Virus record (IMG/VR): IMGVR_UViG_2541047801_000004
Span: 1-41,611 of that record
Direction: 5' to 3' (one strand)
DNA: 41,611 nucleotides
DNA from: a virus
Taxonomy: Duplodnaviria; Heunggongvirae; Uroviricota; Caudoviricetes
The translations under genes were made by a program, and so were the position numbers. Below, one piece after another: positions 8,277-36,587 of the stretch (position 1 is its first letter; every line of letters begins with the position of its first letter). The notes below the pieces were generated by a model that saw only the letters and a list, made by a program, of their open reading frames with translations, ran no database searches and was not told the DNA's origin.

Positions 8277-8293
8277 ATTACCTTTCAGGTGAT
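8277..8293. promoter_or_regulatory. operator-like 17-bp dyad (ATTACC TTTCA GGTGAT)
   Basis: Member of the recurrent ATTACC-N5-GGTAAT family. Confidence 0.45.
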
Positions 8294-9396: not shown

Positions 9397-9413
9397 ATTA
9401 CCTTAAAGGTAAT
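9397..9413. promoter_or_regulatory. operator-like 17-bp dyad (ATTACC TTAAA GGTAAT, perfect half-sites)
   Basis: Best copy of the family; lies between the divergent 9377 gene and the ant leader. Confidence 0.5.
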
Positions 9414-9489: not shown

Positions 9490-9506
9490 ATTACCTTTAC
9501 GGTAAA
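9490..9506. promoter_or_regulatory. operator-like 17-bp dyad (ATTACC TTTAC GGTAAA) in the ant leader
   Basis: Family member about 90 bp downstream of the 9397 site. Confidence 0.4.
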
Positions 9507-9771
9507 TTTACATCGCACTCCTCTTGTGCCATAGTAATCGGGCACTGGCAAAATCCAGTGCCGGGATTGGCGTCCCGGATTACTACAGAGGCACATATGC
9601 CGCATAAGCGGTTTTTTTATGTGTAAAGCGCACCTATTCTATGGTGGGCTGTGTGGGGGCACCGAAAGGTGCGCCGGGTCCTTTGTAGCCGGTTACGCCA
9701 ACCCTGCACAGTTCACCACCAACCGATTGGCGTCGGTAGTGGTGATTAACCTAACTACAAAGGTGATCACT

Positions 9772-10458
9772 ATGACTGCTAACGTAACCCCATCTGTTTT
9801 TCATTTTGAATCAGAAGCAACCATTCGAGCCATTGTTATTGATGGAAATCCTTGGTTTGTTGCCAAAGACGTTATTAAAGCTCTTCAACTGACAAACCCC
9901 ACTATGTCAATAAAATCTCTTGATGATGATGAAAGGGCTAAATTTAACTTAGGCCGTCAAGGCGAAACCAATATTATCAACGAGTCAGGCCTCTACACAC
10001 TGATCCTCCGCTGCCGCGATGCGGTGACACCAGGCACTATCCCATACCGCTTTCGTAAATGGGTTACAGGTGAGGTTCTTCCTCAGATCCGCCGCACCGG
10101 AAGTTACATTAAAAACTCGCTCCCGCAAGAAGAACGCATAAAGATGGTTGCCGACCAGGTAGCCAACGCCACAGCATCAGCAGTGATGCAGGCAATGAAG
10201 ATAGAGAACAAAACCTACAGCGCCCCACTAAAGCCCGGCTACCGCAGTCTGATTCACTCGCCGTCTGGTGTTCTCGGCCTGACGGAGAACTCACTGCTGA
10301 TGAATCTGCTGAACCAGTTACAGGAAGACGGGCACGACGTATCGGGCGCGGCGGCGGAGTTGACCACCATGTTCTGCTACATCGTCGGTGTGAACAAATG
10401 CCTGCGTGATATCCAGACGCACGCGGAGTACATCAACGACAAAGCAGGGTTCTTCTGA
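9772..10458 (+). CDS. ant: antirepressor (Bro-N domain, Ant-like)
   Basis: ATG 9772 with AAAGGTGA RBS; Bro-N-like N-terminal domain (IRAIVIDGNPWFVAKDV...INESGLYTLILRCR...FRKWVTGEVLPQIRRTGSY); long structured 5' leader. Confidence 0.75.
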   Translation: MTANVTPSVFHFESEATIRAIVIDGNPWFVAKDVIKALQLTNPTMSIKSLDDDERAKFNLGRQGETNIINESGLYTLILRCRDAVTPGTIPYRFRKWVTGEVLPQIRRTGSYIKNSLPQEERIKMVADQVANATASAVMQAMKIENKTYSAPLKPGYRSLIHSPSGVLGLTENSLLMNLLNQLQEDGHDVSGAAAELTTMFCYIVGVNKCLRDIQTHAEYINDKAGFF

Positions 10459-24734: not shown

Positions 24735-25027
24735 TCCTGTTCACTGGCCTCTTTGGCCATCTTCAAATACTGTTCAGGGCAATGCGCCATAACGCGCTGA
24801 AACAGTTCCAACGCCAGATTGCGTTGCCCCTCATTAAATGCCATTGCCATAGCGTCCATCGGTGAGATAGCGGAAAACACACGGCCTTTCTCCAGCACCG
24901 ACCAGACAACGCGACGCCCCTGTTCACTGCTCATGACAAAGCGAATGTCATCAATTTCACGCTGCGCCATGTCACGTTGCTTACGGGCGTTTTCTTCTTT
25001 CAGTTGATCGTCTTCGTAATCTGTCAT
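24731..25027 (-). CDS. hypothetical protein between portal and scaffold
   Basis: 98-aa ORF with overlapping start/stop to neighbours. Confidence 0.45.
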   Translation of the reverse strand: MTDYEDDQLKEENARKQRDMAQREIDDIRFVMSSEQGRRVVWSVLEKGRVFSAISPMDAMAMAFNEGQRNLALELFQRVMAHCPEQYLKMAKEASEQE

Positions 25028-26703
25028 TGTGATTGCCCACCCTGACCACTAACTGCATTCGCCATAGCTGACAAAACACTCGGATCCGAAGTTTTAGCTT
25101 CGCTTAGCGTCTTGGCACCCTGTGCCGCCGCCATCCCCATCGCCATCATTTGTTGCTGCTGTTGCTGCTGTGCCCGTTGCTGGCGAGCCTGCTCAACCTG
25201 TTCCTGCGGAACAATGACGGTTGGAGACACTCCGGACATATCAGCGAATGCATCGATCGCCTGATCAACGTTGAGTTTGTCGAGAGCTTCTGGTTTCGCT
25301 TGCGCAAGTTGACCAATGAAGTTAACCGTGGACGCCAGACTGGACAGGCCGATAGACTTCTGCGCCTGAGCCATGACGGAAATGTATTCGACCTTCAGGG
25401 GCATGCCTTCCATCGCGTCAGGCGGTGGCGGCAGCATGTTTTTACGCACCATCATCGAGAAAGCGCGGTCAATGAGAGGATTAAGACATTCGTCGTTCAG
25501 ACGCTCCAGAACCGGCCCCAACATCAGAAGTTTTTCTTCTTTCATTTCGATCACCGCTTCAACAGGCATCGAGCGGGTATTGATGTTCTGCAACATCATG
25601 AACAGATCGACAAAGTAGGCGCTGTTAATGATTTGACGAGTGTCCTGAATGTCTGCCACCAAATCTGCTGTACTGGGGTTAACCAGATAAGCAGGCCTGA
25701 AGCCATCCTGACCAGTAATCTGATCGATATACGTGATGTCGCCAGGAAGAAGGGAGGCGCGCTGATTCTTGAGGGAATTCGGAGCAACCATCGGCGGATT
25801 GGTGGCTTTATCAATCAACTGCGACTTGCGCTTCTGGAGAAGCTGCAATGCCTTAACAGGTCCAAGCGCCAGCATACCCGGGCATGATGATCCATAAACA
25901 TCTTCGCCGTTAACTTCCCAGCGCGGAGCCATAATTGGAAACTCATCGAATCCGGACTCACGCAACAACTTGTCGTTATCGCCACCAATCTCGTAATAAA
26001 CCGATTTGAATGGCTTGTTCTTGCTATCCAGCTTCGATGTATCACGGTCAATGTTCGGGTAAACCGAATGCATCACTTCAATCCACTTCTCGTAGGTGCC
26101 GCTTTCCCACATGCTTTTTACGGATTCGCTGACGTTATTTAGCCCGAACTCCTGAACAAGCTGACGAACAGTCATAGAGAACTTGCGAAAACAGGTGTCC
26201 ACACTGCCACGAGGTGAGTTAGCCAGGTAGTAACTGCCTATCGGGAATGGCATTGTGCGAATGATGTCCTCGTCATCCTCCAGCACTGCCATTGCACCAG
26301 TGCTGTATGTGCCGAGGCTTCCGTATAACTGCGGCAGCGACTGATAGAGATTCGACTTATTGAACATATCGTTCATGCGGTTCTGCACCGCCTCAAGCCA
26401 CAACTTAACAGGGCCATAATCCATCATTTCAGGATCTGGCGTAGCCAGGCGAAACCACGGACGCGCGGGGCTTGTGATGCCTGACATCATGCCGCTGGCG
26501 AGAGTGCGCGCCGCCATAGTCCCGGTCGAATCAATAATGCGTGTATTGCGTCGATCGTTACGGTTGACCTCAGAAGTCAGAAAGCGGGAACCACGCGGAT
26601 TGATGTAATCACTCAACTCGCGCCAGTGCGGCTCGAACGACTGACGCTCGCTTTCAAGTTGTGCGAACTGTTTGTTCAATCGCTCTTTAGTTGTTTCCGC
26701 CAT
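25024..26703 (-). CDS. portal (head-to-tail connector) protein, T7-like
   Basis: 559 aa; Gln-rich C-terminal tail (QQRAQQQQQQQMMAMGMAAAQ); follows terL. Confidence 0.7.
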   Translation of the reverse strand: MAETTKERLNKQFAQLESERQSFEPHWRELSDYINPRGSRFLTSEVNRNDRRNTRIIDSTGTMAARTLASGMMSGITSPARPWFRLATPDPEMMDYGPVKLWLEAVQNRMNDMFNKSNLYQSLPQLYGSLGTYSTGAMAVLEDDEDIIRTMPFPIGSYYLANSPRGSVDTCFRKFSMTVRQLVQEFGLNNVSESVKSMWESGTYEKWIEVMHSVYPNIDRDTSKLDSKNKPFKSVYYEIGGDNDKLLRESGFDEFPIMAPRWEVNGEDVYGSSCPGMLALGPVKALQLLQKRKSQLIDKATNPPMVAPNSLKNQRASLLPGDITYIDQITGQDGFRPAYLVNPSTADLVADIQDTRQIINSAYFVDLFMMLQNINTRSMPVEAVIEMKEEKLLMLGPVLERLNDECLNPLIDRAFSMMVRKNMLPPPPDAMEGMPLKVEYISVMAQAQKSIGLSSLASTVNFIGQLAQAKPEALDKLNVDQAIDAFADMSGVSPTVIVPQEQVEQARQQRAQQQQQQQMMAMGMAAAQGAKTLSEAKTSDPSVLSAMANAVSGQGGQSQ

Positions 26704-26717
26704 TTCAATGACTCCGG

Positions 26718-26924
26718 TTACTGACCAAGTAGCGTTTTACCGCTGGTATTAGCGGTTGATGTGTCGCCCTGAGAACCGGTAAGCAGCGTAGAACTACGAC
26801 CAGCAGCAGCGCGACGGCGACGTGTTTCTTCGTCGCGGGCATCAACAACGGCGGCATCCTGCTCCTGTGGTGCTGCCTGAACTTCTGGTGTTGCAGGCAC
26901 TGATGGTGAGCTACCCATGCACAT
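26718..26924 (-). CDS. small low-complexity protein upstream of portal
   Basis: ATG 26924 with GGAG RBS 8 nt upstream; 68 aa rich in Ala/Ser/Thr/Arg. Confidence 0.4.
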   Translation of the reverse strand: MCMGSSPSVPATPEVQAAPQEQDAAVVDARDEETRRRRAAAGRSSTLLTGSQGDTSTANTSGKTLLGQ

Positions 26925-27013
26925 ATCAATGACTCCGTACGCAATTAAATTATTACCAATTTAACCACATATGATTTATCTATCGTAGATAGTTGACATT
27001 TAACGCACGAATT

Positions 27014-27030
27014 ATTACCTTTCAGGTAAG
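27014..27030. promoter_or_regulatory. operator-like 17-bp dyad (ATTACC TTTCA GGTAAG) overlapping a TTGACA -35-like element at 26992-26997
   Basis: Family member upstream of the tRNA/moron unit. Confidence 0.4.
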
Positions 27031-27351
27031 CAAAGAGTTCATTCCGGTTATTAACCTGACTGGCTTGTCGTTAAATTAAACAGGTGGGGTGAGCTTTTAT
27101 TTTGAGCAGTACGGCGTATGGCACATGCGCCGATAGCGGTCTGGATACGTTTAAGGGGCACCCTCCCTTGCTCGGGCAAACGAACCAGGTAGCCGGAATG
27201 TGCAAGTCGAGCGGTTTTATTCCGCGCACGGGGATTCACCATCCCGGCGATTCGGTGTGACGCCTCGGAAGAGACGAGGGTACAACGATGAGAGCATTTA
27301 TGGAGCCGCGACAAAGTGTGGCGCCTTAACAGGCTAAGTGCTCTCAGCGTT

Positions 27352-27428
27352 GTGGCATTAGCTCAGTTGGACAGAGCAACCGCCTTCTAAGCGGTTGGTC
27401 GCAGGTTCGAATCCTGCATGCCACGCCA
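27352..27428 (+). tRNA. tRNA-Arg (anticodon TCT, reads AGA)
   Basis: 77 nt; acceptor stem GTGGCAT/ATGCCAC, D-stem GCTC/GAGC, anticodon stem ACCGC/GCGGT with loop CTTCTAA, T-arm GCAGG-TTCGAAT-CCTGC, discriminator G, encoded CCA. Confidence 0.9.
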
Positions 27429-27471
27429 GAATCACGCCTAAGGACCGTGATGCCAGAAGTTCCAGGTGCTT

Positions 27472-27513
27472 GGCGGTGATAGTTTCCCTTGAAGGACTAT
27501 CACCGCCCTTTTT
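27472..27513 (+). terminator. hairpin terminator after the tRNA
   Basis: 12-bp perfect stem GGCGGTGATAGT/ACTATCACCGCC followed by CTTTTTA. Confidence 0.55.
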
Positions 27514-27591
27514 ACAGCAGGACGCCATTGCGATGACTTCATGCTGTAAACCAGTACAGCCACGGAAGGCATAACTCATTGCTTCCAGTTC

Positions 27592-27615
27592 GCCCGGTTC
27601 GCCGGGCATTTTTTT
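27592..27615 (+). terminator. rho-independent terminator immediately upstream of the moron RBS
   Basis: Stem GCCCGG/CCGGGC with TTCG tetraloop, then ATTTTTTT; RBS AAGGTGAG and ATG at 27627 follow directly. Confidence 0.6.
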
Positions 27616-27626
27616 AAGGTGAGATC

Positions 27627-28046
27627 ATGAAGACAATTGATATGTTGGCTAAGTATCTAAATGAATGGCCATTAAAATATTCTCGTATCGTTCAGGCTGA
27701 AGACTGCATTTTTTATGGCGTTCTTGCTGGTAATGAAATGCATTACGAAGTAATTCAGAGTGAGGGACTGGCTGGGTTAACTCTTAGCGAAGACCATGGT
27801 ACTAGCGTTACGTTCCATGACTGGATAACAGCACAACGTTCTGAAATGGAAAAAGGCGATGTTTTTGATATTTCTCGCGCTGTTTACGCTAAAGCAAAAA
27901 GTGATAATGATTACATGAGCGAACACTTATACAACATGAAGTTGCAATGCCTGCATGCGGCGCTTATTCAGAATGGGCACTTCGATAAAACAAGTGCCAT
28001 CAATATTGCGGAAGCCATCAACGCTGGATTTAATGCCATTAAGTAA
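27627..28046 (+). CDS. hypothetical moron protein (139 aa), low GC
   Basis: Strong RBS; opposite strand to the late operon; own terminator downstream; no recognisable motif. Confidence 0.6.
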   Translation: MKTIDMLAKYLNEWPLKYSRIVQAEDCIFYGVLAGNEMHYEVIQSEGLAGLTLSEDHGTSVTFHDWITAQRSEMEKGDVFDISRAVYAKAKSDNDYMSEHLYNMKLQCLHAALIQNGHFDKTSAINIAEAINAGFNAIK

Positions 28047-28050
28047 CACC

Positions 28051-28062
28051 GTGACATGTCAC
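28051..28062. repeat. 12-bp perfect palindrome GTGACATGTCAC (copy 2 of 3)
   Basis: Exact palindrome 5 bp after the moron stop codon. Confidence 0.8.
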
Positions 28063-28066
28063 AAAC

Positions 28067-28093
28067 AGCCAGCCGATGAGCTGGCTTTGTTTT
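28067..28093 (+). terminator. rho-independent terminator of the moron gene
   Basis: Stem AGCCAGC/GCTGGCT with loop CGATGA, followed by TTGTTTT. Confidence 0.55.
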
Positions 28094-28136
28094 ATCCTCA
28101 TCAGAGGATATCAACGACATTATCCCCACCAGCAGA

Positions 28137-29612
28137 TTAAGCATATGGATCGTAATCTGTGATGGCCTTGCCTTGCTGGTTCTGCTGCCCGGGAATTCGC
28201 AGACGCTTCGACACAGGGAACGCAAACGTCAGCAGTAGCGCATCGCCTTTACCAGGAGAACGCCCAAGCCGCTCCTTGATATCTTCCTTCGGTTCGATAA
28301 CGATTTTACCGTCCACTCGAACTTTGTACTCTGCCGCCGACAGGTCGTCCGCTGTTTCCTGGTCATCCAGCATGCCGCCCAGCCTCAGCCATGTCTTACA
28401 TGAGTTGAACATCTCCCCGCGCTTGTTGAGCATCTGAGGGTCAGTTGACGCACCACCGAACGGAACAAGTTGCCATGTACGACCCCAGCCATCACCGATT
28501 GACTTCAGACCGGTTCCGTAACCGAAGTCGATGAACACCGCGTCAGCATTGTACTGGTCTTCAAAGTCAGCGATACGCTTCGCCATAATCAGATCGTCGG
28601 TGGTCTTGTTACCAGTCCATAGCACCTTACTGTGCAGCCCCTGCCGCAGGTATATCACCGCGTCATCAACGCCTGAGTATGCCGGGTCAACGCCGATTAT
28701 CACCGGAGCATGTGCAACCTGCGCAGCGGTGACCACCCGTTTCATTGCCTCGTCAGTAAGTCCGGTAGGGATAAACTGCAATTCAGATGCATCCGGGAAT
28801 ATGCCGCGCACACGGATTTTAACGAAGTCGCTGTCTTCCCCGTAGTCATCAACCCATTTCTGCAACTGCTGTTTGTTAGTGCCTTCCACCGTCCGGCTGT
28901 CAATCTGCGCAGTTTTCCAGCGGTGTTTGTATTTGCGGAAACATTCGCGAAAACGCCCGGTATTACGTGTAGGGTTTCCGAACGCCACCCAGATAATCTC
29001 AGTGTCTTCGTCCGTAAGCGCACCCTCAGCAACTTCCCACACCAGATCCGCAATGTTCGACGCTTCATCGAATACCACGATGATGCGTTTTCGCTCGTTG
29101 TGTAGTCCGGCGAATGCCTCAGTGTTGTGCTCAGACCAGGGGATTGCGTCAGCTCGCCACCGCTTGTCGTGCCCAGGATCATTGCTGTACATCGCGGTAG
29201 CGGTACAGGTAAACCAGTCTTTCGTGATAGCAAGGTTCGACCACTTGATAATTTCCGGCCAGGTCTTCGTTCGTAGCTGGTTGTCGGTGTTGGCGGTCAC
29301 CACGACCTTACAATCCTCGCAAGTGGACATGCCCCAGTTGATCAACATTGAGATGTATGCTGATTTACCAATACCGTGACCCGAAGCACGTGCCAGCATA
29401 AGCGGCTGATAGCGCGTCTCGGGATTCTGCAGGTGATCACGTATCTCTCGGAACGCATCGGCCTGCCACTGACGTGGGCCGGTAGCATGTGCCAGTTCAG
29501 TCCCCTCTTCCCCCCACGGGAACGCATAGAGGGCATAGCCAAGCGGATCGTGAGTGAACCCTGCAATATCCTCGATCAACTGCTCTTCAGGAGATAACGC
29601 TGCATCTGTCAC
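28137..29612 (-). CDS. terminase large subunit
   Basis: 491 aa; ATPase-like N-terminal region (GHGIGKSAYIS) and nuclease-like C-terminal region; start overlaps the terS stop. Confidence 0.8.
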   Translation of the reverse strand: MTDAALSPEEQLIEDIAGFTHDPLGYALYAFPWGEEGTELAHATGPRQWQADAFREIRDHLQNPETRYQPLMLARASGHGIGKSAYISMLINWGMSTCEDCKVVVTANTDNQLRTKTWPEIIKWSNLAITKDWFTCTATAMYSNDPGHDKRWRADAIPWSEHNTEAFAGLHNERKRIIVVFDEASNIADLVWEVAEGALTDEDTEIIWVAFGNPTRNTGRFRECFRKYKHRWKTAQIDSRTVEGTNKQQLQKWVDDYGEDSDFVKIRVRGIFPDASELQFIPTGLTDEAMKRVVTAAQVAHAPVIIGVDPAYSGVDDAVIYLRQGLHSKVLWTGNKTTDDLIMAKRIADFEDQYNADAVFIDFGYGTGLKSIGDGWGRTWQLVPFGGASTDPQMLNKRGEMFNSCKTWLRLGGMLDDQETADDLSAAEYKVRVDGKIVIEPKEDIKERLGRSPGKGDALLLTFAFPVSKRLRIPGQQNQQGKAITDYDPYA

Positions 29613-35867: not shown

Positions 35868-36452
35868 ATGAAAAGTATCCAGGACGTCCGCAGGCAAAAT
35901 CTCAACGACTTGATCGACCGTGAATTCAATGGTGTTCAGACGCGGATGGCAGAAAAACTTGGAACTCAGGCAAATCTGGTAAACCGCTGGGCTCTTGGCA
36001 AGAAGGTTATCGGCGACCAGGTTGCGCGAAAAATTGAAGCTGCCGCCAATAAACCCCGTAACTGGCTTGATATCGATCGCTCGCTTTCTCAGGAAGGTTT
36101 TCAGCCTGTCGGCCCAAGCGACATTGGTCAGCTGGCAGCTCACAACCTGGAACGCTGGATGAGTGAAAGCCGCGACCTTTCAACTCAGGGAAAACTTCAC
36201 CGCGCATCCGGCGTCGCCCAGGTGACAATAAGCCGCCTGTTAAACAATGAGGTCAGCGTTTCCATTTCCACCCTGGAGAATGTTGCATCTGCATTCGGGC
36301 GTCACGGATATGAACTACTGATTCATCCACATGACCCTGCAACTATCAACTATGACCGCTCGCGCTACGCATTGTTACCTGAAACAGAGAAGGCAAAGAT
36401 CGAAAGTTACATTGAATTTGTCATCAACCAGAACGAAAAAAACAAACAATAA
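35868..36452 (+). CDS. prophage repressor, dual HTH (XRE-like), no peptidase S24 autocleavage domain
   Basis: 194 aa; two HTH-like segments (GVQTRMAEKLGTQANLVNRWALG and ASGVAQVTISRLLNNEVSVSISTL); divergent from cro-like gene; weak RBS; no Ala-Gly/Ser-Lys LexA-like cleavage module. Confidence 0.6.
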   Translation: MKSIQDVRRQNLNDLIDREFNGVQTRMAEKLGTQANLVNRWALGKKVIGDQVARKIEAAANKPRNWLDIDRSLSQEGFQPVGPSDIGQLAAHNLERWMSESRDLSTQGKLHRASGVAQVTISRLLNNEVSVSISTLENVASAFGRHGYELLIHPHDPATINYDRSRYALLPETEKAKIESYIEFVINQNEKNKQ

Positions 36453-36570: not shown

Positions 36571-36587
36571 ATTACCTCAACGGTAAC
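36571..36587. promoter_or_regulatory. operator-like 17-bp dyad (ATTACC TCAAC GGTAAC)
   Basis: Overlaps the predicted transcription start of the PL-like promoter. Confidence 0.45.

Follow-up and report, generated by a model that had tools for sequence, protein, structure and literature searches.

Introduction

The c4 and isrK RNAs of phages P1 and P7 are structured leader RNAs of repressor-controlled phage operons that are processed from a precursor. RNA-mediated antitermination in phages is so far represented by one small family, the put RNAs of phage HK022, of which about ten sequences are known; these RNAs are approximately 70 nucleotides (nt) in length and form two stems, and putL is found just downstream of the early promoter (PMC9378689). 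Here, we describe a structured leader RNA, further referred to as the core, in a stretch of 41,611 nt from a virus of the class Caudoviricetes (IMG/VR record IMGVR_UViG_2541047801_000004, positions 1 to 41,611; this whole stretch is called the window below). Its similarities identify the window as a phiV10/epsilon15-like (Uetakevirus) prophage: the region 26900–28140, which contains the core, is 94% identical over its full length to phage HEMP4, and about two thirds of it is covered at 97–98% identity by phiV10 and the O157 typing phages 9 and 10. The core precedes a tRNA-Arg gene and a short open reading frame (ORF) in a unit that an earlier reading of the bare sequence, the original prediction, had interpreted as a tRNA with its leader followed by a moron gene.

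The core joins put, nut and c4 in the class of structured leader RNAs of phage early operons. Like HK022 put, it can be found in an apparently N-less lambdoid phage, where it closely follows a repressor-controlled early promoter and precedes terminators; this placement was seen in mEp460, mEp390 and the loci L018 and L021. Both RNAs have a specific conserved fold, and function across unrelated phage backgrounds would in both cases point to a host partner. They differ in architecture, the core having ~180 nt, five helices, two candidate pseudoknots and an additional long stem (P6) as opposed to the ~70 nt and two stem-loops of put, and in number, the core being single per genome whereas put forms a left and right pair. 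In addition, no similarity in sequence or to our covariance model of the core (R1) was found in the region 22–30 kb of HK022, which is not confirmed to hold putL. In its lambdoid relatives the core occupies the position of nutL of phage lambda, and the purine-rich GAAGAGA loop of its hairpin H5 is, in our view, reminiscent of boxB. However, this loop has 7 nt where boxB has a GNRA-like pentaloop, the core is far larger than a nut site, the window and 125 of 127 loci lack the canonical boxA (GCUCUU[U/A]A), and the downstream genes tested gave no match to an N-like family. With c4 and isrK (immI) the core shares the nature of a structured leader RNA in a repressor-controlled operon, and the window contains such a pair itself (9542–9723). 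C4 and isrK have Rfam models whereas the core has none, and c4 pairs antisense to its own transcript, whereas no such complementarity was found for the P6 insert of the window.

The Leader Contains a Structured RNA With a Covarying Fold

A blastn search with positions 27040–27351 recovered the central part of this region (~27111–27273, in many cases up to 27351) at 70–83% identity in very different phages. These include the lambdoid phages mEp460, cdtI, 2H10 and Ayreon, Stx2c and Stx2a phages, the phages P1, P7, D6, SJ46 and RCS47, phages of Klebsiella, Salmonella and Enterobacter, and one phage deposited as a Stenotrophomonas phage. Thirty-eight diverse cores were aligned (alignment A2), and this alignment served both as the source of the covariance model R1 and for testing the fold. 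It consists of invariant blocks with variable hairpins between them; approximately 70 positions of the core are invariant across distant phages, and invariant single-stranded blocks are present together with the apical loops YCCUUG and GAAGAGA.

When the fold (hairpins and helices P1, P2 and H3 to H5; Table 1) was tested on this alignment, 97.7% of the cells were paired and 12 pairs showed compensatory changes on both sides. Such both-side changes were counted in 74 cells, against 19 ± 4 after shuffling, and none of 500 shuffles reached the observed value; controls in which the fold was slid all paired at 44% or less. The second of two candidate pseudoknots, between the loop of H4 and a downstream GGUG, covaries as well (C-G to A-U in five sequences). 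The first, between the loop of the P1 hairpin and the invariant 19-mer, is only a candidate, because its sequence is invariant. RNAalifold favors a longer form of it (GCACAU with AUGUGC), and since this pairing competes with the top of the P1 hairpin a conformational switch is possible. G-U pairs are frequent in the core and would be C-A on the opposite strand, which argues that the RNA corresponds to the plus strand, as does the tRNA. The minimum free energy of the leader is −122 kcal/mol on the plus strand (z = −3.4), with z = −1.7 for the minus strand.

The original prediction had called the leader non-coding and highly self-complementary; the folding energy, the covariation and the lack of codon periodicity bear this out. 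Its concern that the structure might not be conserved in related phages is answered by the covariation across the 38 diverse cores. To judge from the alignments, core and P6 together make up a family of structured RNAs that covaries strongly and has two apparent pseudoknots.

The Core Is Widespread and Unannotated

The core is present in 1840 of 5426 complete E. coli genomes; among the matches listed in these genomes, 59 of 60 have no annotated feature and the remaining one is annotated as hypothetical protein. The 19-mer GGTAGCCGGAATGTGCAAG was found in at least 120 contigs of IMG/VR and, among genomes represented once per species, in 24 contigs, 22 of which are assigned to Enterobacterales. 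R1 identifies one copy per locus in 98 of 99 other loci. No second core, either behind the early right promoter (PR) or elsewhere, was detected in the window, in mEp390 or in these 99 loci, apart from a tandem pair in L055 (3991–4155 and 4798–4960, minus strand, ~800 nt apart), the only locus with two cores. An Oscillospiraceae contig (L023) was rejected as a member of the family, as it has the 19-mer without the other blocks and is a chance match. A full core (162 bits) is found at 1156–1318 of a 1.7-kb contig from a metagenome-assembled genome labeled "Bacillota bacterium" (L035), which most likely comes from an enterobacterial phage and was binned there as a contaminant.

A search of the region 26700–28300 with the 4227 models of Rfam (E ≤ 1) returned no match except the tRNA; a scan of the whole window returned nothing over the core, and neither did a search at E ≤ 5 over the core in seven related loci. 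No description of the core RNA was found in the literature, for which we used sequence strings and the subjects antitermination/put/boxA, prophage motifs, the phage P1 ban operon and Uetakevirus. The leader RNA is unannotated and without an Rfam family, whereas annotations of the tRNA and the ORF exist in relatives. A covarying, pseudoknotted RNA that is present in phage P1 and in the prophages of a third of the complete E. coli genomes has escaped annotation, and this holds whatever its mechanism.

Position of the Core in Lambdoid Phages and Phage P1

In at least 72 lambdoid loci, the core has the cI-type repressor gene on one side and the early-left genes on the other, and shares the strand of the repressor gene. 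The order in mEp460 is the cI stop codon, a terminator, two OL-type operators that resemble the cI/cro ones, a −35/−10 pair and the core, which lies ~40 nt past the inferred start of the early left promoter (PL); in L018 and L021 the core begins ~10–20 nt from the −10. In the PL transcript of lambdoid phages, the core thus comes first, at the very 5′ end where nutL and putL are placed, and the leader terminators follow it. In mEp390, a relative of HK022 and HK97, the single core lies in a 780-nt ORF-free PL leader that contains a strong terminator, and a Q protein is present. A search for N-like Pfam families in the early-left genes of mEp390 and mEp460, and in the neighbors tested, gave no hit, although diverse N proteins may escape detection in this way. 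At least one plus-strand intrinsic terminator follows the core within 700 nt in 82% of 126 distinct loci, compared to 38% for the minus-strand control.

Phage P1 carries the core 15 nt after trnI (tRNA-Ile) and before ban, inside the C1-controlled ban operon, where a dicF-like region and tRNAs are found alongside it. In a Δhfq host at 20 min, trnI of P1vir is down, and ban and dbn are up (bioRxiv 10.64898/2025.12.28.696737), a contrast that weakly hints at a boundary at the core.

The P6 Stem and the tRNA

The long stem P6 follows directly after H5 and the core in ~101 of 155 loci. Its proximal 16 base pairs (bp) are conserved with compensatory changes, and around them 22 unrelated types of distal insert are found, ~12–100 nt in length, all of which fold at −19 to −55 kcal/mol and some of which hold hairpins resembling a tRNA T-arm. 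The insert of the window is of the commonest type. When it was examined for antisense targets within the phage, only matches at chance level were obtained, and duplex energies against start regions were uninformative. About a third of the loci have a core without P6; in these, a different conserved 3′ module is found instead or the core runs directly into a gene. Arrays of stem cassettes were observed in the Klebsiella phage SopranoGao (L012, 96–629 nt after the 19-mer) and in the leaders of L013, L014 and L021. Such a cassette consists of a CCNGG-GAAAGAC-CNGG hairpin, ACAAC and a P6-like stem with another insert, and recurs two to three times downstream of the core.

The tRNA-Arg(TCT) gene of the original prediction was confirmed by ARAGORN, as the single tRNA of the window, and by Rfam (Table 1). 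Its best match in E. coli K-12 MG1655 is the tRNA-Arg at 564732–564802, which we take to be argU, with 85.9% identity over nt 7–77; the aligned differences sit in stems and are compensatory. The phage gene is therefore distinct from host argU, as had been proposed, and does not mark an integration scar. Copies with at least 95% identity are found in ~505 of 5515 records. Similar genes, encoding a standard AGA-reading cloverleaf, are annotated in the O157 typing phages 9 and 10, SPC32H and others; the tRNA itself is ordinary, and what sets the gene of the window apart is its fusion to P6. The ORFs of the window use AGA at 7.1 and AGG at 3.4 per 1000 codons, presumably an approximately threefold enrichment relative to E. 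coli usage; they cluster in tail and early genes, and the head genes do not use them.

Among 52 diverse loci, only ~6 have a tRNA-Arg after the core, and in phage P1 a tRNA-Ile precedes it. The assignment of the leader to the tRNA is therefore abandoned: the core is an independent mobile RNA module. By this comparison the tRNA is optional cargo, with the core RNA as the constant element.

Organization of the Unit and Its Putative Control by the Phage Repressor

The unit fills the gap between terL and the gp3-like and portal genes, on the strand opposite to both flanks. Along the plus strand, it comprises the TTGACA hexamer, ~320 nt of non-coding sequence, the tRNA, the terminators T1 and T2, a ribosome binding site (RBS) with an ORF of 139 amino acids (aa), and the terminator T3 (Table 1). 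The ORF map and the terminators support its original description as a self-contained plus-strand unit between portal and terL.

Table 1. Coordinates of the core, the surrounding unit and the flanking genes in the window.
Feature	Position	Strand	Evidence or remark
Portal	25024–26703	−	Flanking ORF
gp3-like gene, 68 aa	26718–26924	−	phrog_831, function unknown; divergent from the leader promoter
−35-like hexamer TTGACA, inferred early promoter	26993–26998	+	Read from the sequence
Phage repressor operator TTACCTTTCAGGTAA (TTACC-N5-GGTAA)	27015–27029	.	Covers inferred −10 and start of the plus-strand promoter
5′ leader with motif GUCGUUAAAU (27067–27076), degenerate stem module	27030–27108	+	Module intact in epsilon15 and Tyrion (sequence comparison)
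Conserved structured RNA core	27109–27288	+	Covariance model R1: 143.7 bits, E = 3.5e-48; single copy in the window
P1 hairpin	27112–27132	+	Core alignment
Candidate pseudoknot 1, P1-hairpin loop GCAC with GUGC inside the 19-mer	27121–27124 with 27200–27203	+	Core alignment
P2 base	27136–27143 with 27186–27193	+	Variable distal hairpin with YCCUUG motif
Invariant 19-mer GGTAGCCGGAATGTGCAAG	27188–27206	+	Core alignment
H3	27206–27208 with 27246–27248	+	Core alignment
H4	27231–27234 with 27242–27245	+	Core alignment
Candidate pseudoknot 2, H4 loop CACC with downstream GGUG	27237–27240 with 27254–27257	+	Core alignment
H5	27263–27267 with 27275–27279	+	Loop GAAGAGA, 7 nt
P6, long stem CAACGAUGAGAGCAUU ... 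AGUGCUCUCAGCGUUG around variable distal insert	27283–27352	+	Final G doubles as base 1 of the tRNA
tRNA-Arg, anticodon UCU (TCT), encoded CCA	27352–27428	+	ARAGORN; Rfam RF00005, 73.3 bits (gathering 29)
tRNA trailer, small RNA-like: hairpin 27431–27451, single-stranded stretch, T1	27429–27513	+	Terminator scans; homologous to a module in relatives
T1 terminator	stem 27472–27507 (14 bp), T5 27509–27513	+	Terminator scans, −22.3 kcal/mol
T2 terminator, GCCCGG-UUCG-CCGGGC, then A and T7	27592–27615 (stem 27592–27607, T7 27609–27615)	+	Terminator scans, −11.2 kcal/mol
RBS AAGGTGAG and 139-aa ORF, orphan accessory protein	RBS 27616–27623; ORF 27627–28046	+	ATG at 27627; RBS abuts the T-tract of T2
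T3 terminator, ends the unit convergently with terL	28067–28086	+	Terminator scan, −9.9 kcal/mol; annotated as terminator in phiV10
terL	28137–29612	−	Flanking ORF

The TTGACA hexamer is located 16 nt ahead of an operator in both the window and epsilon15. As the −10 is weak (TACCTT) and a scan against the promoter consensus did not pick up a sigma-70 promoter here, we can only infer a plus-strand promoter. The original prediction had placed an operator dyad over TTGACA (ATCTATCGTAGATAG); this dyad is not conserved in epsilon15, and the operator proper lies downstream of the hexamer. Its sequence, TTACC-N5-GGTAA, occurs 12 times in the window where 0.6 copies are expected (at 8278, 9398, 9491, 27015, 30205, 30223, 33423, 33485, 35750, 35798, 36510 and 36572). 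Pairs of copies are found on both sides of the ORF 35868–36452 and copies also precede several operons, including that of terS; at the site at 36572 the layout is similar, with TTGACA 22 nt upstream of the operator. From their distribution, the dispersed sites appear to be the operator regulon of the phage repressor, and the epsilon15 record marks equivalent dispersed sites as repressor binding sites ("repressor, lysogeny"). We take the 194-aa ORF 35868–36452 to be the repressor gene, judging from its position.

Since an operator covers the inferred promoter, the unit is predicted to be off in a lysogen and on early after infection or induction. With regard to the features of a moron, the unit does have its own terminator, but its promoter carries a repressor operator over the −10 and start and should be silent in a lysogen. 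The unit should therefore be an early repressor-controlled operon rather than a lysogen-expressed moron, and an early operon that consists mostly of RNA genes and is controlled by the phage repressor is the best explanation for the region. Of the features originally read from the sequence, the tRNA, the terminators, the RBS, the ORF and the non-coding, structured leader hold; the operator dyad over TTGACA does not.

Terminators and the Trailer of the tRNA

The two intrinsic terminators that had been proposed after the tRNA, T1 and T2, were both recovered by terminator scans, and a third (T3) follows the ORF. The arrangement of T2 with an abutting RBS is shared with epsilon15, and in L010, L019, L007 and L008 hairpins of the T2 type are found ahead of differing cargo ORFs.

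Between the tRNA and T2, the transcript has a trailer that looks like a tRNA-trailer small RNA (sRNA): a hairpin, a single strand and a terminator, similar to the 3′ end of an Hfq-type sRNA. The known RNAs nearest to it are RprA and the tRNA-linked sRNAs of the 3′ETS-leuZ type. RprA is a host sRNA that activates rpoS. In relatives, the module before T1 aligns end to end with the Rfam model of RprA, reaching 50.2 bits in L013 (2131–2250), which is below the gathering threshold of 70. It shares 19 identical nt with the RprA consensus (AAUUGCUGUGUGUAGUCUU), followed by a terminator, and its seed TGTGTGTAGTC is present in 28 of 127 distinct loci. The module may, from this resemblance, be a mimic of RprA. 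The trailer of the window itself did not match RprA (RF00034, ≥ 70 bits, conserved seed UGUGUGUAGUC), and its single-stranded seed differs. RprA-like modules were also observed just 5′ of a long terminator in L014, L019, L098, L117 and others.

Phage epsilon15 is a deletion derivative of this arrangement: it shares positions 27064–27146 of the window, and the sequence of its core stops in the P2 loop and is taken up again in the T1 loop. In PAT1 (L008), the same 13-nt motif TTCCCTTGATGCT is found at the P2-loop and T1-loop positions, where the deletion in epsilon15 joins. The P2 apical loop (27157–27168) and the T1 loop (27484–27494) of the window share a YCCCUUG(A) motif, which pairs with an inserted AAGGGG in the window, mEp460 and the phage P1 subfamily; a common binding partner of the two loops is possible.

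The 139-aa ORF and the Accessory Slot

The ORF that follows T2 has a [G + C] content of 40%, compared to 48.6% for the window, and its RBS starts at 27616, directly behind the T-tract that ends at 27615, as had been noted originally. The stretch from T2 to the ATG is too short to hold a promoter, so that this cargo can be expressed only by read-through, which the original prediction had suggested in a conditional form. The protein belongs to phrog_4846, of which the function is unknown, and has 102 homologs, all of them hypothetical proteins of Enterobacteriaceae. No match was found in Pfam, PADLOC or the sequences of the PDB. The AlphaFold model (AF2) is poor, with a predicted local distance difference test (pLDDT) score of 64.5, and a fold search among viral proteins gave a single match below E = 0.001, a 123-aa viral protein without a name at 62% identity.

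Other Uetakevirus-type loci have a member of the gp49/Sf6-gp66 family (phiV10p03), a DUF551 protein or a membrane coiled-coil protein in the same slot, and in L010 and L122 it is occupied by Tad2-like Thoeris anti-defense proteins. By this comparison, we consider it a swappable early accessory slot, and the Tad2-like genes of the relatives agree with the earlier suggestion that the protein could be a defense, anti-defense or conversion factor. The 139-aa protein itself was rejected as a Tad2-like or otherwise known defense or anti-defense protein: it has no match in Pfam or PADLOC and only the slot in common. As the slot of relatives holds anti-Thoeris genes, it is nonetheless a reasonable anti-defense candidate, and such a role is plausible by analogy. 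The Uetakevirus locus would thus be not a tRNA with a moron but an early RNA-rich operon with a last slot for interchangeable accessory genes, known anti-Thoeris genes among them.

Possible Functions of the Core

We tentatively favor a reading in which the core is a cis-acting, put-like antiterminator, although from its position we hold this with somewhat less than even confidence. Once the repressor leaves its operator, the TTGACA promoter would fire rightwards to yield a single precursor with a short 5′ leader, the ~180-nt core, P6, the tRNA-Arg(UCU) and the sRNA-like trailer up to T1. RNase P, cutting at the 5′ end of the tRNA, would free the leader RNA with the foot of P6 as its 3′ end. 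The nascent folded core may act in cis on host RNA polymerase, alone or with host factors, as does HK022 put RNA, and the polymerase would then pass downstream terminators, be it T1 and T2 or the leader terminators of lambdoid phages. Only polymerases that have passed T1 and then T2 would express the cargo ORF, a variable accessory and possibly an anti-defense gene, while the tRNA would supply AGA decoding. Antitermination in cis is suggested because the early-left genes of the lambdoid relatives have a single repressor-controlled promoter, which lies ahead of a strong leader terminator, and an antiterminator protein is not evident. Phages with unrelated gene sets have this core in common, which makes a host partner likely and disfavors a phage-specific protein partner.

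Several points weigh against such an antiterminator, which is proposed from position. There is one core per genome and none behind PR, whereas put and nut form left and right pairs; the core is about 2.5 times as large as put; and R1 finds nothing at 22–30 kb of HK022, a sparsely annotated record in which putL was not located in this stretch. Only 2 of 127 loci have a canonical boxA, and no terminator was detectable after the core in phage P1 and SopranoGao. In epsilon15, two thirds of the core are gone, but T2 is retained ahead of the ORF. Finally, T1 resembles a terminator that ends an sRNA module, and the terminators may therefore serve the making of RNAs rather than being there to be overcome. 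If the core is put-like after all, it would be the common solution in enterobacterial temperate phages and explain early-left expression in lambdoid phages without N. That it is the founding member of a second and far commoner class of RNA-only (or host-factor-only) processive antiterminators, spread over P1-like, lambdoid and epsilon15-like phages and about a third of the sequenced E. coli genomes, in which a nascent RNA with two pseudoknots would reprogram E. coli RNA polymerase where early operons begin, is a wider claim that we regard as possible but doubtful.

Alternatively, the core could be a structured RNA that is made early, is cut from the precursor by RNase P, E or III and acts in trans on a host factor or defense system, be it as a decoy, as a sponge or by binding a protein. 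We consider this a serious possibility, if on balance an unlikely one. Processing of the tRNA would free a discrete core in both the core-tRNA order of Uetakevirus and the tRNA-core order of phage P1, the single copy per genome suits an RNA acting in trans, and the invariant single-stranded blocks and apical loops (YCCUUG, GAAGAGA) would suit reading by a protein. The long perfect P6 resembles a substrate of RNase III, for which the epsilon15 record marks a site in the homologous intergenic region, and the operon neighbors are the RprA-like module with T1 in relatives, the dicF-like region and tRNAs in the ban operon of phage P1, and Tad2-like cargo. However, the P6 insert of the window has no antisense match in the phage beyond chance, and in phage P1 and L098 the core continues into mRNA without a 3′ end of its own; nor would an RNA acting in trans need the strict 5′ placement in PL-type operons. 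The modular make-up of P6, with its conserved 16-bp proximal part and 22 unrelated, in part T-arm-like, inserts, would also fit a role of core and P6 as a processing and stability platform: a 5′ cap with RNase III and RNase P sites that shields the precursor from RNase E and Rho and delivers the P6 inserts, the tRNA and the trailer sRNA as cargo. Long untranslated operons need protection from Rho, and H5-like hairpins and P6-like stems are repeated downstream in the lambdoid and SopranoGao leaders. We nevertheless think this improbable, as a pseudoknotted core with ~70 invariant positions is far over-constrained for a stabilizer and about a third of the loci have a core without P6.

The original prediction regarded the 320 nt as the leader of the tRNA itself, with the terminators as a classical attenuator or riboswitch-like gate on the ORF. 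The order of core, tRNA, T1, T2 and RBS is indeed as it described, and the possible switch, in which GCACAU of the P1-hairpin loop pairs either locally or with the invariant AUGUGC ~75 nt away, could be seen in this light. Yet T1 starts 184 nt after the end of the core, with P6 and the tRNA in between, and T2 another 85 nt further on. No overlap or alternative pairing was seen between the core and the stems of T1 or T2, as attenuators and transcriptional riboswitches require; most members of the family have no adjacent tRNA, and the downstream genes are unrelated across phages. We consider such a gate very unlikely. Of the original interpretation, the structured leader, the read-through and the accessory slot are supported, and the moron, the tRNA leader and classical attenuation are not. 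Least credible of all, to the point of being nearly discounted, is a protein-coding gene or a DNA-level site. An 87-aa ORF is present on the minus strand (27051–27314), many members of the family keep an open minus-strand frame, and hypothetical proteins are annotated over the core in mEp460 (mEp460_037, L003 2943–3311) and mEp390 (mEp390_036, L014 2011–2253). However, the distances between the invariant anchors of the core vary by non-multiples of three (mod-3 counts of 15/12/11 and 15/14/9). Owing to this lack of three-base periodicity, coding potential was rejected for the ORFs that overlap the core, and the minus-strand hypothetical proteins are very likely spurious annotation artifacts. 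Moreover, the variation is concentrated in compensatory changes of stems, and the strand-specific G-U pairs fit RNA, not duplex DNA.

Additional Observations

A few further features were noted in the loci studied. In L117, a 13-nt match to TGCTCTTTAACAA, which we take to be the rrn boxA consensus, is found behind a small hairpin right after the core, ~95–150 nt after the 19-mer, and L074 has GAGCTCTTTAAAA at the same place. As only 2 of 127 loci have the canonical boxA core, an involvement of boxA/Nus was dropped as a general feature of the family. PhiV10p04 (L001 2959–3210) overlaps the tRNA and its trailer instead of the core, and is probably an artifact as well. The gp3-like protein encoded next to the unit has an arginine-rich stretch (ETRRRRAAAGR) reminiscent of the RNA-binding motifs of N proteins, which may be a coincidence.

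Elsewhere in the window, matches to isrK (76.8 bits) and C4 antisense RNA (79.5 bits) are located at 9542–9723 on the plus strand, just behind the operators at 9398–9412 and 9491–9505. They overlap the start of a 279-aa ORF (9619–10458), in an arrangement that resembles the RNA-controlled antirepressor module of the immI type of phage P1. The same C4/isrK/c4-a1b1 set is present in mEp460, upstream of a Rha-type gene (L003 706–907).

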